Assembly: GCA_965205425.1 (NCBI GenBank)
Contig: CBDBGZ010000009.1
Coordinates: forward strand, 736,001-800,000
Source of the DNA: Nitrosopumilus sp.
Lineage (GTDB): Archaea > Thermoproteota > Nitrososphaeria > Nitrososphaerales > Nitrosopumilaceae
Reading direction: 5' to 3'
DNA length: 64,000 bases
Part shown: positions 36,900-46,353 of the stretch, one piece after another
Layout of the letters: every line of letters begins with the position of its first letter
Position numbering within the stretch: position 1 is the stretch's first letter
Notes under the pieces: model-generated
Database searches by the model: none
What the model saw: only the letters and a program-made list of their open reading frames with translations
Told to the model about the DNA's origin: nothing
Position numbers and translations under genes: made by a program

Positions 36900-37439
36900 A
36901 TGGGTTATTTGGAAATTTTATTCATGAAACCTTTCATTCTTTGGATGACTGGTCTTCCTTGTTCAGGAAAGACCACAATCGTAAAAGATTTGCAAAAAGA
37001 CATTCCAAATTTGGCAATGCTTGATGGTGATGAACTAAGAGAATGGTTCTCTCCAAAAGACTTTTCAAAAGCTGGCCGTGATGAGCATAACAAAAAAGTT
37101 GCTCATTTAGCAAAGCTTTTGTTAAAACATGGTGTTCCAAGTGCAGTATCTCTTGTATCTCCATATCTTGAGAACCGAGAAAATGCAAGGGAGATTGTTG
37201 ATACAGGTGATCAATTTGCAGAATGTTATGTAAAATGTTCACTTGAAAAATGTGAAGAAAGAGATGTCAAAGGTATGTATGCTAAAGCAAGAAAAGGAGA
37301 AATCAAAGGATTTACAGGAATTGATGATCCTTACGAGGCTCCAGAAAAAGCTGATTTAGTTGTTGATACAGAACATGACTCACTTTCAGACAGTGCAAAC
37401 AAAGTAAAGGACTTCCTTAAAGGAAGAAACCTACTCTAA
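36900..37439 (+). CDS. cysC: Adenylyl-sulfate kinase
   Basis: GLPCSGKTT, LDGDELR, KGFTGIDDPYEAP. Confidence 0.95.
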   Translation: MGYLEILFMKPFILWMTGLPCSGKTTIVKDLQKDIPNLAMLDGDELREWFSPKDFSKAGRDEHNKKVAHLAKLLLKHGVPSAVSLVSPYLENRENAREIVDTGDQFAECYVKCSLEKCEERDVKGMYAKARKGEIKGFTGIDDPYEAPEKADLVVDTEHDSLSDSANKVKDFLKGRNLL

Positions 37440-38246
37440 TTTTTTAAATTCTTCAACTATTTTTTCATGAATTAATCCATTAGTTACAAGAATTCCATTT
37501 TGGTGATACACATCTTCATTATTGTATGTGAGATCATTTCCTAACATGTCAGTCATTTTTCCACCTGCTTCAGAAATTATACAATACGAAGCAGCTGAAT
37601 CCCACTCTTTCATTTTATTTGTTGTTGTAATGTATGCTTCAGCTTCACCAGAACTTATCTTTCCAACTTTTAATGAACTACCTATACTTGTAAAATCTTC
37701 AATACCTAATTTTTTAATAAATGATTTTTCTTTATCTGATAAATGATGTCTTGAACCAACAGTTCTACATTTAGGAATTTCTGAAACTTGTGTTACAGTT
37801 ATTTTTCCCCATTTATTATTTGAAAATCTAAATGCACCATTTCCTTTTTGTGCAACAAACATTGTTTTTTCTGTTGGCCATCCAATTACTCCAAGAATTG
37901 GTTTTTTATTTTTGATTAATGAAATCATTACTGTAAATTCACCAGTTTTGTCAATAAAATCAGAAGTTCCATCTAATGGATCCACAATCCAAATTATTTC
38001 CTGTGACAATCTACTCAAGTCATCTTTGTCTTCTTCAGATAGAATTTGGTGTGTAGTTTGTGAGAGGATTTTTTTAATAATTTCATTACTTTTTAGATCA
38101 GCATCTGTTATAGGAGAATCGTCATTTTTTGTAGATGTTTCATATTCTGCATGATAAATCTCTAGAATTGCTTCACCTGCTTCTCTTGCAGCCTTGATAG
38201 CAATTTCTAACTCTGGAATTTTATCAGAAATAGGTATGTCTTTCAA
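37431..38246 (-). CDS. cysQ: 3'(2'),5'-bisphosphate nucleotidase
   Basis: SEE, WIVDPLDGT, EWD. Confidence 0.9.
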   Translation of the reverse strand: MKDIPISDKIPELEIAIKAAREAGEAILEIYHAEYETSTKNDDSPITDADLKSNEIIKKILSQTTHQILSEEDKDDLSRLSQEIIWIVDPLDGTSDFIDKTGEFTVMISLIKNKKPILGVIGWPTEKTMFVAQKGNGAFRFSNNKWGKITVTQVSEIPKCRTVGSRHHLSDKEKSFIKKLGIEDFTSIGSSLKVGKISSGEAEAYITTTNKMKEWDSAASYCIISEAGGKMTDMLGNDLTYNNEDVYHQNGILVTNGLIHEKIVEEFKKLE

Positions 38247-38256
38247 TTGAAATTAC

Positions 38257-38499
38257 CTAAGTTGTAAGTTCTGGTTTTAGTGTCCAAGCAACTCCAAGAA
38301 CAATAAATGGAATTGACATTACTCCTATGATAGCTAATATTGTATTAAATTGGGTTTCTGACACTTCTGGATTATTTACTATCCATGGAAGTGGTAATGT
38401 GATAATTATCCAAATAATTCCTAAAAGTATGATTAATTTTGCTTTAGATTTTTTATCATTCATCATATTTGTTCTCCTCCGGAGTTGTATTAAATTCAT
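38257..38499 (-). CDS. Small membrane protein
   Basis: Two TMs. Confidence 0.6.
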   Translation of the reverse strand: MNLIQLRRRTNMMNDKKSKAKLIILLGIIWIIITLPLPWIVNNPEVSETQFNTILAIIGVMSIPFIVLGVAWTLKPELTT

Positions 38500-38505
38500 G
38501 TGAAT

Positions 38506-39249
38506 TCATTTGATTGATTCCCCTCCATCTACAGTAAGAATCGCACCTGTAGTCCAAGATGCATCATTTGAGGCAAAATACAGCACTGCTCTTCCTATCT
38601 CATCAGGCTGTCCAATTCTACCTAATGGATGTTCGTTATCCATGAATTCTTTATCTTTCTGAGTTTTCAAAAATGGTTTTGTCATATCTGTATCAACTAC
38701 TCCAGGACAAATACAATTCACTCTAATCTTATCTTTAGAATATTCTAATGCCCAACATTTTGTTAATAGGATTAATGCCGCCTTTGATGCAGAATATGCA
38801 TCTGCATTAAATCCTTCATAGGCCTTTATTCCTGCATCTGATGAAATATTAATTATTGAACCGAATGTTTTTTGTAAATGAGGAATTGCTTCTTTAGTAA
38901 ATCTATACTGTCCTGTAAGATTCACATCTAATACTTTGTTCCATTCATCTTCATCAATTTCATGCAATTTTTTAATTTGTGGAAAAACTCCTGCATTATT
39001 TACAAGAATATCTAATTTACCAAATTTCTCAATAATTTCTCTTATGACATTTTTTACCTCATTTGTTTTTCTAATGTCAGCTGTAATTGAAATTGCATTT
39101 GGAATTTCTTTTATTGCATTTTTCAATCGCTCTTTATCTTTTGCAGTAATGATTACTGTAGCTCCATTTTCTGCTAAAATTTTTGCGGTAGCTAACCCTA
39201 TACCACGACTTCCACCTGTAACTAGGGCAACCTTATCTGATAATTTCAA
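38506..39249 (-). CDS. Short-chain dehydrogenase/reductase
   Basis: TGGSRGIG, NNAG, YSASK. Confidence 0.92.
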   Translation of the reverse strand: MKLSDKVALVTGGSRGIGLATAKILAENGATVIITAKDKERLKNAIKEIPNAISITADIRKTNEVKNVIREIIEKFGKLDILVNNAGVFPQIKKLHEIDEDEWNKVLDVNLTGQYRFTKEAIPHLQKTFGSIINISSDAGIKAYEGFNADAYSASKAALILLTKCWALEYSKDKIRVNCICPGVVDTDMTKPFLKTQKDKEFMDNEHPLGRIGQPDEIGRAVLYFASNDASWTTGAILTVDGGESIK

Positions 39250-39419
39250 TAATTTTTAGATGTGAATTTAGTAATTTATAGATCAATTAGCTAATAATGC
39301 AAATATTAGAAATTATACAAAAACTATTATTTTTATGTAAAATTTCATATTAAATGTTAAATACTTAAAGTTACTATAGTAATTAATGTCGAAAGATATA
39401 ATTGCTATCGACTAAACCT

Positions 39420-39518
39420 GCGTAGCCCCGCAGAACGAACAAGGTGATCAGACGTTAAACGGCTGACAAAGAGAGGAAATCTCTCAGTGTTCTGTAACAA
39501 AGGGGTGTACGCCTTTTT
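39420..39518 (+). ncRNA. Candidate structured ncRNA of unknown family
   Basis: GC-rich island in AT-rich spacer; nested stems and two hairpins; TATA-like element upstream and T5 downstream. Confidence 0.6.
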
Positions 39519-39960
39519 AATTTTCTAAAATGTCCACAGATACCGAACCTATTGTTTTACCATTTGGATTGATTGTAATTGAAATTTCTTGCATTTCCAA
39601 TATTGTAATATTTTTTTGTCCATCATAATCCCATGTATAATATTCTGATATCCCAGTTTGATGCGGTGTTCCAACTAGTTTGAAATCTTCGGTATATGCA
39701 AATGAATCTCCATCTAATGTAATTGACAAAACTTTTGGGCTACTGCCATTTGGAACAAATCTAAAATAATATTCTCCTTTTTCAATTGTGAATGTATTTG
39801 TGTATATCCCATCAACGTAAAGTTTAGGATCTGCTAGCGTTACATGAAATTGTATATTCTTTTTTTCACTAGATTCTTCAAATGAAAAACTTGCTAAAAT
39901 AATTGCCAAAATGATAACTATTGGTACGATTTTTATTTTTTTATTCACTGAAATAAACAT
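39517..39960 (-). CDS. Membrane-anchored hypothetical protein
   Basis: N-terminal TM followed by a beta-rich domain. Confidence 0.65.
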   Translation of the reverse strand: MFISVNKKIKIVPIVIILAIILASFSFEESSEKKNIQFHVTLADPKLYVDGIYTNTFTIEKGEYYFRFVPNGSSPKVLSITLDGDSFAYTEDFKLVGTPHQTGISEYYTWDYDGQKNITILEMQEISITINPNGKTIGSVSVDILEN

Positions 39961-40033
39961 AAAATTCCATTATAAAAGTAAATTCCATATAATATCAATA
40001 TGCTTAAGTTCCTAATTTTATAAAAATTTGTAA

Positions 40034-40318
40034 ATGAGTTTTAATTGTAAGAGATGTAATTCAGTTTTCCAAATAGAGATAAAATCAATATGTAAAAATT
40101 GTAAAATTCAATTAGATTTACTAAATCAAGAGTTAAAAATTAATAATGAAAGAATCAAAAAACTCGAAGAACATAAAAAATCTGAATCAAATAATCCTAA
40201 ATCTACAAATCCTCACACAAGATCAGAAACAATGAAACGAATAGAGTATAACTTACAGCTTGAATACAAAAAACATGATGGAATTATTAAAATGATGAAT
40301 TCTACTGATTTATTCTAA
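40034..40318 (+). CDS. Hypothetical protein (CxxC...CxxC, coiled coil)
   Basis: 94-aa ORF. Confidence 0.5.
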   Translation: MSFNCKRCNSVFQIEIKSICKNCKIQLDLLNQELKINNERIKKLEEHKKSESNNPKSTNPHTRSETMKRIEYNLQLEYKKHDGIIKMMNSTDLF

Positions 40319-40494
40319 ATCGTTCTTGTTTGGGTTATGATTATTTCTTAATTTGAAATTAATTTTTTATCTCTTTAATTATTTAATTTTTTAGGAAGAG
40401 ATTTTTGATATACTCACTTTTAGTTAGTAATTTTTTATGTTCTGTAAACCATTCTTTACACCGGAAATTAAGTACACATTCTAAAATCAAAGGC

Positions 40495-41142
40495 ATGCCT
40501 AGCGGTCTATCCAACAAATGGTCAAAGCAACCACAGCCTGGTATTACTGAAAAAATTGGTGATACAATAAAGCCAAAAGGTGCCCTAAAACCACGAGTTC
40601 AGGAAGGAATTAAAAAATTACAATTACAAATTAAAAAATTAGATACAATGCTTTCAAGTTTACAAGAGCGTGATGCAAAACTATTCCAAAGAATTGTTGA
40701 TGCAACACAAAAACATGATGTTCAAACTACCAAAGTTCTCGGAAATGAACTTGCTGAAGTACGAAAAGTTACGAAAATTTTAAGCAGTGCAAGAATTGCA
40801 CTAGAGCAAATTGAATTACGATTAACTACATGCAGTGATCTTGGAGATACTGTAGTAGCCATTATGCCAACAATGGGATTAATGAAGGGATTAAAGTCAT
40901 CACTTGGCAAAATAATGCCAGGAGCAGAACAAGAAATTGGTCAAATGGCAGAAATGCTTGGTGGATTTATGACTGAAAGTTTCTCAGGTGATGCAGCATT
41001 TGGTACAGATGAAACAATGAGTGCAGAATCTGAAAATATTCTAAAAGAAGCAGCAGCCGTTGCAGAAAGTTCAGCAGGACAAATGTTCCCATCTGTTCCT
41101 ACTGATACACAAGAAGAAGCTTCTACAAACAAATTCTTATAA
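40495..41142 (+). CDS. ESCRT-III/Snf7-family CdvB paralog
   Basis: LKPR...KKLDTMLSSLQERD...NELAEVRK...ALEQIELRL...EAAAVAE...FPSVP; start placed at MPSGLSNKW. Confidence 0.85.
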   Translation: MPSGLSNKWSKQPQPGITEKIGDTIKPKGALKPRVQEGIKKLQLQIKKLDTMLSSLQERDAKLFQRIVDATQKHDVQTTKVLGNELAEVRKVTKILSSARIALEQIELRLTTCSDLGDTVVAIMPTMGLMKGLKSSLGKIMPGAEQEIGQMAEMLGGFMTESFSGDAAFGTDETMSAESENILKEAAAVAESSAGQMFPSVPTDTQEEASTNKFL

Positions 41143-41154
41143 TTTTAAAATCTT

Positions 41155-41625
41155 TTATTCATTCACAGAATCTCTAGATTCTTTAATTTTTCTAACTCTA
41201 CTACCTTCATCATCAATAACTCTATCAACACCAGAAAGTTTTTCTCTTAAAGTATTGATGATCGAACCTACTTCATCTGCCTCACTTTCTACTTGTTGTC
41301 TTTTATTAGCAAGTTCTGCAATTCCTCTATTTTCTTCTTCTATGTATTCACTAACTTTTTGAAGTTTTTCTTTGAGATTTTTAATATCAACTGATTCTTC
41401 TTCTATATCTTTTTCAAGTAATGTTCTTTTATCTTTGAGATTTTTAATCATTAAACCAACATAATCTATTGCTTCTTCTAATTTTGCCCGTTTTCCCATT
41501 AATTCACCAATTCCGATTTGACTGGATGATTCAGTTACTGAGCTAGATTCTACAGATTCTTCAACATTGGTATTTCTTTCTTCTACCATTTCTCCTCCCT
41601 CTTCATTTTTGAATTTATCAAACAT
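41155..41625 (-). CDS. Acidic coiled-coil protein
   Basis: Long heptad region. Confidence 0.65.
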   Translation of the reverse strand: MFDKFKNEEGGEMVEERNTNVEESVESSSVTESSSQIGIGELMGKRAKLEEAIDYVGLMIKNLKDKRTLLEKDIEEESVDIKNLKEKLQKVSEYIEEENRGIAELANKRQQVESEADEVGSIINTLREKLSGVDRVIDDEGSRVRKIKESRDSVNE

Positions 41626-41723
41626 TTTATGATTTACTTTTCAAAATGGGAATAAAAAGTTACATTGCATCTCAAAGCTGACCTTGTGAATGATTTTTAG
41701 TCAATTAAAGAAAAAAGTGGTGA

Positions 41724-42282
41724 TTATCTCACCGGTGTTAAATTTCTGAATTCTTGGTTAGAACCAATTGATTTTTCTGAATTTATGGCAGAATCTACAT
41801 TATGTAACAGCTTGATATTTTGAGCCGTTTCCAGATTTTTCATCATAGAATTCACAAATGAGATCGCATAACCATTTTCCTCATCAGTTTCTGAGATTTT
41901 TCCAGAAAATACCACTTTGAAGACAAGATTCTCGTTTGTAGTATCTTCCTTTATTGAAATTTCCCATAGATTTTCACCAATTTTTAATGCTTTTCCATCA
42001 AAAAGAATGATTCCTGATTGAAATGCCTTGTAGTTTACGTATGCCCATGACATTTGATCATCAAATGATAAAGTTCTCTTCAGATATCTCTTCAGGAAGA
42101 ACATATTGATAGACTTCAAGCTTTCCATCAACCATTTTTTCTGTGAGTATTGCTTTGAGTTCTCTATTTTCTATCTGTTTACCTTCATTTTCTGCAAATG
42201 CATAGGTTACAGATAGGGGTGAAGCACCAAGCATCAAGAGGATGGCTAATGCTCCAATAATACGAATTTGGGTTTTTACCAT
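41724..42282 (-). pseudogene. Frameshifted secreted hypothetical protein
   Basis: Signal-peptide ORF 42061-42282 overlaps ORF 41724-42131; apparent frame change at the CTGAAGAGA repeat near 42075-42095. Confidence 0.6.
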
Positions 42283-42596
42283 GTCAAGATACAGTCTAAA
42301 TGATAGATTAGGAACAGCGAGGAATTGTCCTGTTCCTTATATACAAAATTTTGTCAAAGTCATCCAAATTTTAGAAAAAAGAATCATTTTCTTCAAAATG
42401 CTTCAAAAGACTGTTTTTTGATAAAAATAATATTTTTTTAGATTAATTCTTAGGCATGTTTTTCACCAATCTTTTTCCTATATTTTGAAAATCATCAAAA
42501 ACAAGGTATTTTTTTGGCGAAACTGGTGTTCCGCTTTGTGTTCCGCTGTGAAGTTTCAAAATGTTCCTCATAAACTACATTGTTCTATACTAGAGC

Positions 42597-42884
42597 ATGT
42601 CAAAACAACAATACAGGTCCGAAATGGGCATAATGGGTGATATCTTAGACGTAACCGCTGATGGCGGTCGTGGTGGAGTCATTGTATCTGCAATCTCTCG
42701 CAAAGCCAACCTATCTCACTATGCAGTACTAGACAAATGTGAGAAACTGGTAGAAGCAGGCTTAGTCGAATCCGTCAAAAACGACAGAAATAGAGTCTTT
42801 TTGATAACTGAAAAAGGACTTCAGTTTTTCCAGGAATTCAAGAGATTTCAGGGACTCGTCGAAAGCATGAATCTAAGGTATTGA
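42597..42884 (+). CDS. Archaeal winged-HTH transcriptional regulator
   Basis: YRSEMGIMGDIL...ISRKANLS...LVEAGLV...ITEKG. Confidence 0.85.
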   Translation: MSKQQYRSEMGIMGDILDVTADGGRGGVIVSAISRKANLSHYAVLDKCEKLVEAGLVESVKNDRNRVFLITEKGLQFFQEFKRFQGLVESMNLRY

Positions 42885-42888
42885 ACAT

Positions 42889-43929
42889 ATGAATCCCGTA
42901 ATCATACCAATTCATAGGAAAGAGTCTCTTCGAGAAGATGGAATGCTTTTTGTAAGGACTGATGGTATCCTCGATACAATGGTCAAAATACCTCTTTTGG
43001 TAGCAAGTATAATCATTGTTGCAGCCATTATGCCAATTCAGTCTTCATTCAGTTCTCCTAGAGTTTTAGATCTAATCGTTTATCCAGATGGAACAACTCA
43101 TGTTTCTGCAGAAATTGATATGGATCCATTAACTACTGATTACGAACTTGAATTATTCGGTAGTACAATTGATAATTTTGTTGCCGTAAGTGAAAATGAT
43201 TTTTTACTTGAGTCTGACGTTATTGGTAACTCAGCATTGATTGAAACTTTTGGTTCGTCTGTTATTTCTATACAATATGATATTCATGATTTAGTATCTA
43301 AACAAGGTAAAATTTGGACATTTTCTTTAGATACACCTTCTGATTTTACATTACTTTTACCAACAAATTCTGTAATAGTTAGCATGACAAATATTCCACT
43401 AAATTCTGAAATCATAAATCATCAAAATCGATTGACATTGTCTGGTGGTAATACCGAAATCGATTATCTTTTCAGTACAATACAAAATCCCCCAATCATT
43501 GTTGATCCAATTATCCCATCCGTTACGACTAATCCAACTGATCCAAATTATATAATCTATGCTGCAATTGCTGGTGTTGCAATTGCTGGTGCAGTTGGAA
43601 TTCTAGTAATTGCTAAAACAAAACAAAAAAATGAAACCCTTGAAGAAAAACAAACAATTCAAATTTCTTCAAATACTGAAACAATAGATACTGATACAAT
43701 TTTCAAACTAAAACCAGATATTCGTGAAGATGATAAAGAGATAGTGAAGTTTATCTCTGATAATGGAGGAGAAGTACTTGAAAGTGATTTGCGTAAAAAA
43801 TTCTTACAGCCAAGAACTACAATGTGGCGTGCAGTTAAACGATTAGAACGTCATGGTATTATTGAAATTGAAAAGAAAGACATGCAGAACCTAGTAAAAC
43901 TACGCAAGGATATGGAGCAAGAAGAATGA
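42889..43929 (+). CDS. Membrane-spanning regulator with extracellular domain, TM and cytoplasmic wHTH
   Basis: Signal, TM IIYAAIAGVAIAGAVGILVI, GGEVLESDLRK...PRTTMWRAVKRLERHG. Confidence 0.8.
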   Translation: MNPVIIPIHRKESLREDGMLFVRTDGILDTMVKIPLLVASIIIVAAIMPIQSSFSSPRVLDLIVYPDGTTHVSAEIDMDPLTTDYELELFGSTIDNFVAVSENDFLLESDVIGNSALIETFGSSVISIQYDIHDLVSKQGKIWTFSLDTPSDFTLLLPTNSVIVSMTNIPLNSEIINHQNRLTLSGGNTEIDYLFSTIQNPPIIVDPIIPSVTTNPTDPNYIIYAAIAGVAIAGAVGILVIAKTKQKNETLEEKQTIQISSNTETIDTDTIFKLKPDIREDDKEIVKFISDNGGEVLESDLRKKFLQPRTTMWRAVKRLERHGIIEIEKKDMQNLVKLRKDMEQEE

Positions 43930-44741
43930 AAGCATTAGCATTATTTACAATATTTGTATTAATTTTTGGAACAGGATCTATTTCACTTACAAGTACTGCA
44001 TATGCACAAAATGATCCTTACATTTTATTACGTATTGCTACACAAGCTGATAATCAAATCTTTAAGCAATTAGATAGAATCTATGGTGATTCAATTCCTT
44101 CTGATATAGAAACATTATATCAAACAGGTCACATTGCAGTAGAATCATTAGAAAATTCTTTGCCTGATGATGTAGAAAATGCCAAAGAAAATTTCCTTAT
44201 CGCTATGAAAGCATTTAAACAAATTACAAGAATGATTTCTGAACCTACTGGAGAAACAAGAAATATTTCATCTGATGTACATGATAGAGATCTTCAAAGT
44301 GAACTAAAGAGATTACACAAATATTTTGAAAATATAAAGAAAATATCAGAAAAACATGATACAGGAATTGACTTATCTGATATTGAACAATTGTTTATTC
44401 AAGCACGTCAACAAATAAACAATGATGAAATTGAAGCAGCAAGTCAAACCATTGAACAATTAGAATCTCTTATTGAAATAATCAAACAAGATATTCGTGA
44501 TCATGCATCACATTCAACTTCTGATAGAAGTAAGAATTTTGCTTTAAAGCAATTAGACAGAATCAAGGATACATTAGATGAAGCTACATCTGTCAATCCT
44601 GATATGCCTGAAATTGAAGAGGCAAATTCTTTGATTCAAGAAATTGAAACTTTGCTTTCCGAAGACAATATTTCTGATGCAAAGAAAGAATTTAGAAAAT
44701 TGATTAAATTGGTAAATATTATCAAAGAATCGATTAGTTAG
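43926..44741 (+). CDS. Secreted helical hypothetical protein
   Basis: Signal peptide; ATGA overlap with the upstream gene. Confidence 0.7.
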   Translation: MKALALFTIFVLIFGTGSISLTSTAYAQNDPYILLRIATQADNQIFKQLDRIYGDSIPSDIETLYQTGHIAVESLENSLPDDVENAKENFLIAMKAFKQITRMISEPTGETRNISSDVHDRDLQSELKRLHKYFENIKKISEKHDTGIDLSDIEQLFIQARQQINNDEIEAASQTIEQLESLIEIIKQDIRDHASHSTSDRSKNFALKQLDRIKDTLDEATSVNPDMPEIEEANSLIQEIETLLSEDNISDAKKEFRKLIKLVNIIKESIS

Positions 44742-44775
44742 ATAGCATAAGCTTCATATACATTTTCTAAAGAAT

Positions 44776-44976
44776 TTGAACATGGCATCTAAAGCAATCA
44801 CTGTTTGTGTTGGGATACCCATGATTATTGTTGGTGCTTTGATGGCGTGGTTATGGGCTCCAATTGAAGGAGATCTTCAAAACCAAATAGAACTTGTAGG
44901 AAGTACAATTGGAATCTTAGGTGTGATATTCTTTATCTCTGGTTTGTTTTATACAAAAGAGCCAGTAATGCATTAG
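44776..44976 (+). CDS. Small membrane protein
   Basis: Two TMs. Confidence 0.6.
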   Translation: MNMASKAITVCVGIPMIIVGALMAWLWAPIEGDLQNQIELVGSTIGILGVIFFISGLFYTKEPVMH

Positions 44977-45017
44977 AAACTCATTGAATAAATAATGAAA
45001 AAAATTACGATTATTAC

Positions 45018-45731
45018 TTGAAAGTCAGATTATTTGAAATATTTACATCAGTTGAAGGTGAAGGGATTCTTTATGGAACAAAGACTCTTTTTGTGAGACT
45101 GGCAGGATGTCCGTTTACTTGTTTTTATTGTGATACAAAAGAATCTCTTCCACTTGATTCTGGAACAGAGTATTCTATTGATGATGCTAATCAGTTAATT
45201 GATTCTAATTTGAAAAATCAAACTTACAAAGTAAACTTTACAGGTGGTGATCCGCTAATCCAACATGAAGCAGTTGCATTACTTGCAAAACATATTCAAG
45301 ATAAAAAAATTCCAACATACCTTGAATCATCATGTTTTGATATTGACAGGTTTAATCATGTTTTACCTTTTATCGATATTGTTAAAATTGAATTTAAAAC
45401 AAAAGATTCAGATTTTGTTGATTCAAAACACTATGAAAAATTAATTGGTCACACAATGAAATGTTTAGAATCATCTGTAAAATCAAAGAAAACAACATAC
45501 ATCAAGATAGTAGTAAGTTCAAAAACTCAACCTAATGAATTTTCAAATTTAGTAAAAGAAATTTTCAATATTGTATCTAAAGATGACATTGATGGATTTA
45601 TCATCCAACCCACATATGGAATATCAGAACCATCATTAAATTTGTTATTGGAATTATACGATTTAGTATATCCTAATTACATTGATGTTAAAGTGGTACC
45701 ACAATTACACAAATTTATTGGTGCTCCATAA
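45018..45731 (+). CDS. queE: 7-carboxy-7-deazaguanine synthase
   Basis: EIFTSVEGEG, CPFTCFYCD radical-SAM motif, PQLHK. Confidence 0.92.
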   Translation: MKVRLFEIFTSVEGEGILYGTKTLFVRLAGCPFTCFYCDTKESLPLDSGTEYSIDDANQLIDSNLKNQTYKVNFTGGDPLIQHEAVALLAKHIQDKKIPTYLESSCFDIDRFNHVLPFIDIVKIEFKTKDSDFVDSKHYEKLIGHTMKCLESSVKSKKTTYIKIVVSSKTQPNEFSNLVKEIFNIVSKDDIDGFIIQPTYGISEPSLNLLLELYDLVYPNYIDVKVVPQLHKFIGAP

Positions 45732-45795
45732 AATTAACACCTGCCTAATAATCTGCTTAGGTTCAAATACTAGAAAACTTCTGTGAGATCATAAA

Positions 45796-46353
45796 ATGGA
45801 CCAAGAACGTGTAAAAAAACTTGTTAGAGAATTAATCATAGAAGTTGGAGAAGATCCTACACGTGAGGGTTTACGTGAAACTCCAGAAAGAATTGCAAAT
45901 ATGTACAAAGAAATCTTTGGAGGATATGATTCTGATTCAGAATTATCAGTACAATTCTCAGAAGACTCTGACGTAGTTATTGCTCGTGATATTCAGTTTT
46001 ATTCAATGTGTGAACACCACATGTTACCATTTTTTGGGAAAATTCACATCGCTTATTCACCAAATGGTAGAGTATTTGGTATTTCAAAACTTGTCAGACT
46101 AGTTGAAAAATATTCAAAAAGACTTCAAATCCAAGAACGATTAACCAAAAATATTGCTGATGAACTCCATTCTCAAGGAGTAAAGGGAGTTGTAGTTTTG
46201 GCTGATGCTGAACATCTTTGTATGAAAATGCGTGGTGTCAAAAATGACGCAAAACTTTCTTCATCAGCATTTAGAGGAATCTATGAAAATAAAGAGGAAA
46301 AAGCAGGAATAATGTCACTAATTAGACAACGTGGCTCAGATTTGTCGTTATAG
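45796..46353 (+). CDS. folE: GTP cyclohydrolase I
   Basis: SMCEHH, QIQERLT, HLCMKMRG. Confidence 0.96.
   Translation: MDQERVKKLVRELIIEVGEDPTREGLRETPERIANMYKEIFGGYDSDSELSVQFSEDSDVVIARDIQFYSMCEHHMLPFFGKIHIAYSPNGRVFGISKLVRLVEKYSKRLQIQERLTKNIADELHSQGVKGVVVLADAEHLCMKMRGVKNDAKLSSSAFRGIYENKEEKAGIMSLIRQRGSDLSL

Follow-up and report, generated by a model that had tools for sequence, protein, structure and literature searches.

tmRNA joins a short, stop-ended reading frame to a structured domain and engages the ribosome, and it is characterised by its resume codon, T-loop, G3-U70 pair and 3' CCA as well as by its partner SmpB. The stop read-through elements of MuLV and SECIS have a stable structure 3' of the A site, TnaC and ErmCL are tiny ORFs for which translation matters more than the product, SgrS/SgrT and SR1 are dual-function sRNAs, and RNAs of the HgcC type form GC islands in AT-rich archaea. 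We know of no described class, nor did literature searches yield one, in which a leaderless mini-ORF of fixed length and free sequence is combined with a stand-alone domain at ribosome-entrance distance. Here we describe such an RNA from a Nitrosopumilus genome (G000), located in a window of 64,000 nt, the whole stretch of DNA that was analysed. Judged from its sequences, the RNA is real, covarying and family-wide, with an undescribed architecture and a function that we infer.

Like tmRNA, the RNA couples a short reading frame with a stop to a structured domain, but it carries its own 5' AUG instead of a resume codon, has no T-loop, G3-U70 or conserved 3' CCA, and encodes a peptide that is not conserved, and SmpB was not found. 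With the frameshift stem-loop of HIV-1, as described in the accessible part of that study, it shares a stable structure at a fixed distance of a few nucleotides from the A site, on its 3' side (PMC3561942). It differs from recoding stimulators in having neither a slippery site nor a conserved downstream frame; the length of its core takes every value modulo 3, and nothing lies downstream to be recoded. Leader-peptide attenuators and arrest uORFs such as TnaC and ErmCL resemble it in that translation of the mini-ORF counts more than the product, but the RNA has no same-strand downstream gene and no conserved arrest residues. SgrS/SgrT and SR1 are also small stand-alone RNAs with an ORF, and HgcC-type RNAs are likewise GC-rich islands within an AT-rich archaeon; unlike these, the RNA lacks a conserved peptide, a conserved single-stranded seed and an Rfam match. 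On this comparison its mode of action seems closest to that of a recoding stimulator crossed with the coding part of tmRNA, and it fails the class tests that were run.

The features of the locus are collected in Table 1. The initial annotation had described an element of about 95 nt, and its four helices were all recovered at their positions. Its promoter had been placed at GAAAGATATAAT (39391-39402), which lies inside the 5' hairpin and the mini-ORF; the conserved promoter is TTAAATA at 39357-39363, and sequence conservation extends 5' as far as this box. Since TTAAATA is conserved and stands at the modal TTAAATA-to-ATG offset of this genome (-29; 10 of its 1281 long ORFs at -29, 5 at -30), the supposed promoter is itself transcribed. 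The unit comprises about 133 nt, the 5' third with its 9-codon ORF having been missed, and because this third holds a conserved leaderless ORF, the label 'non-coding' is probably incomplete. A U tract follows the element as described, with a mean of 6.25 T in the 10 nt 3' of the final CGCC. The locus forms a GC island of 41-46% with 15% GC alongside. The RNA is a stand-alone unit with its own archaeal TATA promoter, and its independent transcription, already proposed, is supported by the conservation of this box, by neighbours that are convergent or unlinked, and by a syntenic primary TSS in the published tables available to us (PMC5069720).

Table 1. Features of the RNA locus and its downstream neighbours (positions in the window)
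Feature	Position	Strand	Remarks
Archaeal TATA box TTAAATA	39357..39363	+	AUG 29 nt downstream; kept in 150/151 copies
Predicted full transcript, type I copy, ~133 nt	39386..39518	+	start inferred, +/-2 nt
Leaderless mini-ORF, MSKDIIAID (9 codons) and TAA	39386..39415	+	
P0, weak 5' hairpin spanning the mini-ORF, pairing varies by lineage	39388..39412	+	
Spacer, stop codon to P1	39416..39419	+	3-5 nt in 147/150 copies
P1 5' strand, GCG at start near-invariant	39420..39429	+	
P2 5' strand	39430..39436	+	
P3 hairpin, length and sequence variable	39448..39466	+	
P4, conserved 5-bp hairpin, GNAAU-type loop	39471..39485	+	GAAAU 79, GUAAU 32, GGAAU 23 copies
P2 3' strand	39489..39495	+	
P1 3' strand, CGC end, then conserved unpaired C	39502..39513	+	C in 164/171 copies
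Oligo-U tract, likely terminator	39514..39518	+	overlaps the convergent gene's stop codon
c0, 147-aa protein, hydrophobic N-terminus, convergent neighbour	39517..39960	-	no Pfam match
Snf7/ESCRT-III-like gene	40405-41142	+	weak Pfam match, E 1e-4; syntenic with the RNA in several genera

The preference for the plus strand was confirmed by a fold z of -2.73 vs -1.84 on the minus strand, and the plus-strand value reaches -3.33 once the 5' extension is included. Covariation, put forward initially as a check, is present: in 53 copies aligned by MAFFT without a fitted model, 94.2% of the cells are paired and two-sided changes occur at 12 of 35 pairs, while none of 500 shuffles reaches the observed covariation and slid controls pair at 35-45%. 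The RNAalifold consensus agrees with this pairing. Across 95 family-wide copies (alignment A2, fitted to the covariance model R1) two-sided changes are found at 30 of 34 pairs, a count that leans on R1, a model in which the 3' strand of P2 stands one column off, and that includes some misaligned P2. Sequence is kept and free covariation is absent at the three terminal P1 pairs GCG/CGC (G-C in 94, C-G in 93 and G-C in 94 of the 95 copies) and at the inner pairs of P4. The core is a stable three-way-junction domain, shut by the three near-invariant G-C pairs and followed by oligo-U. P0 is 88.7% paired in the 53-copy alignment, with two-sided change at 3 of 8 pairs; most leaders form a weak hairpin with lineage-dependent pairing (median folding energy -7.1 kcal/mol; 14 of 23 representatives of the lineages have z < -2). 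Folding of the leader is independent of the core: more than two cross pairs are expected in only 4 of 142 copies. The linkers are A-rich and variable and therefore provide no conserved pairing seed; three ACAA motifs, highlighted earlier as a feature, are present in 3 of 173 distinct copies. The sequences give little support to the earlier ideas of self-cleavage and L7Ae binding.

Each of the 150 TATA-bearing copies, whose relatedness makes the counts overstate independence, has a start codon near the predicted TSS (ATG 144, GTG 3, TTG 3), at 26-32 nt from the TATA box and at exactly +29 in 132 copies. The ORF has nine codons in 138 copies, eight in 9, and 7, 10 and 15 in one copy each, and it ends in TAA (104), TAG (31) or TGA (15), never in TGG. 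The distance from the stop to P1 is 3-5 nt in 147 and 0-6 nt in 149 of these copies. Differences in ORF length are whole codons. In the one copy whose original stop is gone (L115) a replacement stands at the next codon, and where ATG is missing, TTG or GTG occupies the codon that follows; L137, with 15 codons, is an exception that reads into P1. In the copy L127:1493-1616 the TATA box lies 24 nt from the ancestral ATG, and a second in-frame ATG at +30 yields seven codons with the same stop. The chance that all of 20 lineage representatives (<70% identical, chosen among the copies of 8-10 codons, 148 of 150) are open corresponds to a log10 P of -5.4, while the other two frames contain stops in 13 and 9 of the same 20. 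Entropy by codon position is 0.95/1.22/1.10; since the third position is no more variable than the first and second, the peptide does not appear to be selected. The encoded peptides differ by lineage, e.g. MAEKSRQMT, MTFVVRAMD and MSLGIIDFK.

Three leaders too diverged for R1 (L108, L113, L160) each have their ATG at +29, followed by nine codons and then a stop, and the mini-ORF is present in all 20 later matches of the broader model R2 outside genus g33, both R1 and R2 having been built with the leader. Among 39 loci selected through the neighbouring gene c0, all 37 RNAs present have an ATG, nine codons and a stop; the remaining two loci hold one 3' remnant and no RNA, respectively. When G000 was scanned without a model for a TATA box followed by a short ORF, 100 sites emerged; ranked by the stability of the fold downstream, the three copies of the RNA are among the top four. 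In g33 (L175-L178, 4 of 4) AUG, stop and the GCG/CGCC end are lost and the 3' fold is kept, with a longer hairpin from the predicted 5' end in place of the ORF, so that g33 would represent a natural untranslated variant.

Besides G000, 35 of 36 genomes of the same genus gave a BLAST match to the RNA, and R1 detected it in 87 of 101 Nitrosopumilaceae genomes, representing 23 of 25 genera. R2 recovered 9 of 15 Nitrosopumilaceae genomes missed earlier. It matched 31 of 31 Nitrosopumilaceae genomes vs 0 of 118 from the other families of the order, and across the phylum 22 of 22 vs 1 of 128 others. Every Nitrosopumilaceae genome of these order- and phylum-wide samples thus contains the RNA, often in two or three copies. 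The lone outside match (G282, E 0.002) has no mini-ORF, a longer frame being open instead, and was rejected as chance. In genus g26 (G064, G089, G112; 0.8-0.9 Mb) R2 found no RNA, and c0 was not found either. In three loci titled Bathyarchaeota/Nitrososphaeraceae (L259, L274, L278) a high-scoring RNA copy occurs together with c0 at 58-62% identity; wrong titles or mixed bins are the probable cause, and failing that these loci would break the restriction to the family. A search of other families for the architecture pattern (TATA, ATG, 9 codons, stop, GYG) returned matches at about the rate of a reversed control, with no element common to the pattern hits among the matches listed. In viral sequences the type III pattern had 0 matches and the type I pattern one, within a phage protein-coding region.

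G000 itself has three copies: the window copy, C4:141097-141227 (L051) and C8:164129-164250 (L181). The C8 copy represents type III, in which P2 is absent and P4 is longer; this type occurs in 26 of 101 Nitrosopumilaceae genomes by BLAST, the weakest few matches being partial, and in several genomes lies antisense between genes that we take from their sequences to be aroA- and aroC-like. An IS transposase gene is inserted directly upstream of the promoter of L051. A 25/30-nt match to the 5' region of the RNA on the antisense strand of an IS transposase gene (E 0.069) was treated as chance; this leader look-alike is found at G000:C4:141786-141815 and at at least 15 further places in G000. Tandem copies about 300 nt apart were observed in L123 (1478-1597 and 1781-1892), one with 8 codons and the other with 9.

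The ocean small RNAs that Shi et al. reportedly described in 2009 could include the RNA. No description of the family was found in the literature searched, which comprised few subscription papers and included accessible parts of PMC3043068, PMC13414033 and 10.64898/2026.09.22.753630; the first of these mentions one unnamed 'conserved noncoding RNA' common to N. maritimus. The accessible part of an ocean mdRNA-Seq study lists in its Table S6 a 'hypothetical ncRNA' of 114 nt, thaum_gene2313 on fosmid KF901103; its line in the Thaumarchaeota table (row 33) gives 72 as the primary TSS count and shows no RNA-Seq coverage, the libraries having inserts of 300-500 nt (PMC5069720). The entry has no sequence, structure, ORF or family, and no mention of it was found in the main text as available to us (PMC5069720). 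The gene order of KF901103 (folE ... Snf7-like, hypothetical, ncRNA, hypothetical, cysQ, cysC) mirrors positions 36900-46353 of the window, and thaum_gene2313 is convergent on the gene at the position of c0. The ends of three neighbours lie 589/680/1459 nt from its TSS, compared with 591/678/1456 from the AUG in L096, the best fit, which places the TSS at most 2-3 nt from the AUG of that locus; two other loci of the same genus show 589 and 590 upstream with shorter downstream distances. The entry is therefore probably an orthologue of the RNA, identified by synteny only, and the RNA has probably been seen once before, as this unnamed line of a supplementary table. For in situ transcription of the orthologue, starting close to the AUG, the evidence is good but indirect. 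In the accessible part of the tables, TSS-to-end lengths on the minus strand are 564 for amoC, 366 for amoX, 513 for cysC and 652 for amoA (PMC5069720); these lengths are whole codons or one more, and the transcripts can be read as leaderless mRNAs. In assembled RNA-library contigs (4 of 10 runs), run X4 had a summed depth of 59 at 39418-39454 vs 5-8 in the flanking bins, and run X5 gave no signal at the RNA; this is a weak hint from a single run, which we do not take as evidence.

These features suggest a small folded RNA onto which ribosomes load and may pause. No conserved frame exists downstream of the stop (0, +1, -1), the nearest ORF downstream is mostly convergent and no significant antisense target was found within the own genome; ribosome passage up to P1 is therefore probably what is selected. 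In the accessible part of the HIV-1 study, the first intact base pair lies 7-8 nt 3' of the last A-site nucleotide, a figure from models of yeast and bacterial, not archaeal, ribosomes (Mouzakis et al., PMC3561942). From the last sense codon of the mini-ORF to P1 there are 6-8 nt (stop plus 3-5 nt), so when codon 9 is in the A site the ribosome should abut P1, and about three pairs, GCG/CGC, would consequently have to open before the stop is read. In g33 the GCG/CGC pairs are altered along with the loss of the ORF.

We propose that the RNA is made leaderless and that a ribosome would initiate at its 5' AUG, with the weak hairpin P0 throttling entry. When codon 9 occupies the A site, P1 would lie 6-8 nt away at the mRNA entrance, and the ribosome would pause as the GCG/CGC pairs must open for the stop to enter the A site. 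The folded domain, with its P4 loop and junction, may then stand against the small subunit and either hold the ribosome or hand over a factor. The mini-ORF would be a device for loading and positioning, not a source of peptide, and the likeliest purpose would be the parking or sensing of idle ribosomes in slow-growing, often starved cells. Three G-C pairs are normally unwound by ribosomes, and a lasting stall is not guaranteed; the persistence of the fold without the ORF in g33 also counts against ribosome parking. Loading of a ribosome onto a stand-alone RNA, which then pauses or parks it, is our best reading, a tentative one to which we give somewhat less than an even chance. Its stricter form, in which the RNA captures ribosomes through its own translation, a nine-codon leaderless runway leading to a folded domain that locks the ribosome before termination, may hold but is doubtful.

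It is highly improbable, and already largely refuted, that the RNA belongs in diverged form to a known class, be it the C/D or H/ACA guides, small ribozymes, tmRNA or Y RNA, or that it is a fragment of SRP, RNase P or 5S RNA. Rfam 15 gave no match at or above the gathering cut-off on the RNA, the sole match of the window being a tRNA elsewhere, and none on it at E <= 1 for eight divergent loci, which agrees with the initial view of an unrecognised family. The best matches, sR52 (12.3 bits, cut-off 50) and RAGATH-22 (13, cut-off 120), are chance ones with E 5-7, and such sub-threshold scores are all that speaks for a known class. Defining motifs are absent: box C RUGAUGA occurs in 1 and CUGA in 82 of 173 copies, an ACA box near the 3' end in 2 of 173, the hammerhead core CUGANGA in 3 of 173 and the T-loop UUCRA in only 11 of 173. 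CCA is found near the 3' end in 70 of 171 copies, but a tmRNA-like 3' CCA is not conserved, the last pair being followed by CU in 79, CA in 62 and CC in 17 of 171. ARAGORN predicted no tmRNA in the window and the genome, and in G000 (99.55% complete) neither SmpB (PF01668) nor the Y RNA partner Ro60/TROVE (PF05731) was found. Full-length canonical SRP, RNase P and 5S RNA genes are intact elsewhere in G000, in line with the unlikeness to these RNAs already noted. A riboswitch or attenuator would call for a same-strand gene downstream, which is not typical, as in 117 of 151 RNA loci the closest ORF downstream runs convergently. The locus is flanked by a divergent SDR gene and by convergent c0, and of the 39 c0 loci 37 contain the RNA. 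A cis element of c0, acting as antisense RNA or shared terminator, has in its favour that in 36 of these 39 loci the main copy directly adjoins the stop codon of c0, and that c0 is restricted to the family like the RNA (31 of 32 Nitrosopumilaceae genomes, 0 of 118 others). Types II and III, however, adjoin unrelated genes, and G-U pairs, TATA box and ORF all indicate the plus strand. For a domesticated mobile-element end, there is no accompanying transposase or reverse transcriptase; for retrons/DRT, reverse transcriptase (PF00078) was found neither in G000 nor among the larger neighbour clusters. We regard a c0 element or mobile-element end as very unlikely. The predicted structure of c0 has a pLDDT of 48, and its Atlas matches are unnamed thaumarchaeal clusters, the nearest named one being GOLD/PPC-like (0.76), a lead only.

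Two further explanations take the ORF into account. The RNA might be a micro-mRNA whose 9-residue peptide, a signal or inhibitor, is the product and whose fold is a stabilising 3' UTR. Very few copies lack an intact ORF, codons 4 and 9 often encode Asp (53 of 91 in each case) and MPKDIIPID recurs in several lineages, but a synonymous-site signature is absent, peptides are unrelated between lineages, residues in common result from hairpin pairing, and g33 keeps the fold without the ORF, which makes this reading unlikely. With better, though still modest, prospects the mini-ORF could serve a translation-coupled lifetime switch, the 3' domain acting as a regulatory RNA or binding a protein. In this role the mini-ORF would only shield the 5' end, or the ribosome would peel the CGCC-U tail for 3'-5' decay, and the RNA level would report translation activity. 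The ORF geometry fits this equally, as do the independent folding of leader and core and the exchange of the ORF in g33 for a longer 5'-end hairpin, as if either device protects the RNA. Such a switch leaves unexplained why the terminal pairs are kept in exact sequence and not by covariation, and it has no identified partner protein.

Nitrosopumilaceae drive marine ammonia oxidation and are chronically starved. If ribosome capture is true, these very abundant marine microbes would possess an RNA-based device for ribosome storage or sensing, in at most three paralogues. Under the milder lifetime switch, the RNA would still represent a new RNA family with translation-coupled control. In either case the architecture lets the management of idle ribosomes in Nitrosopumilaceae be probed sharply and cheaply.
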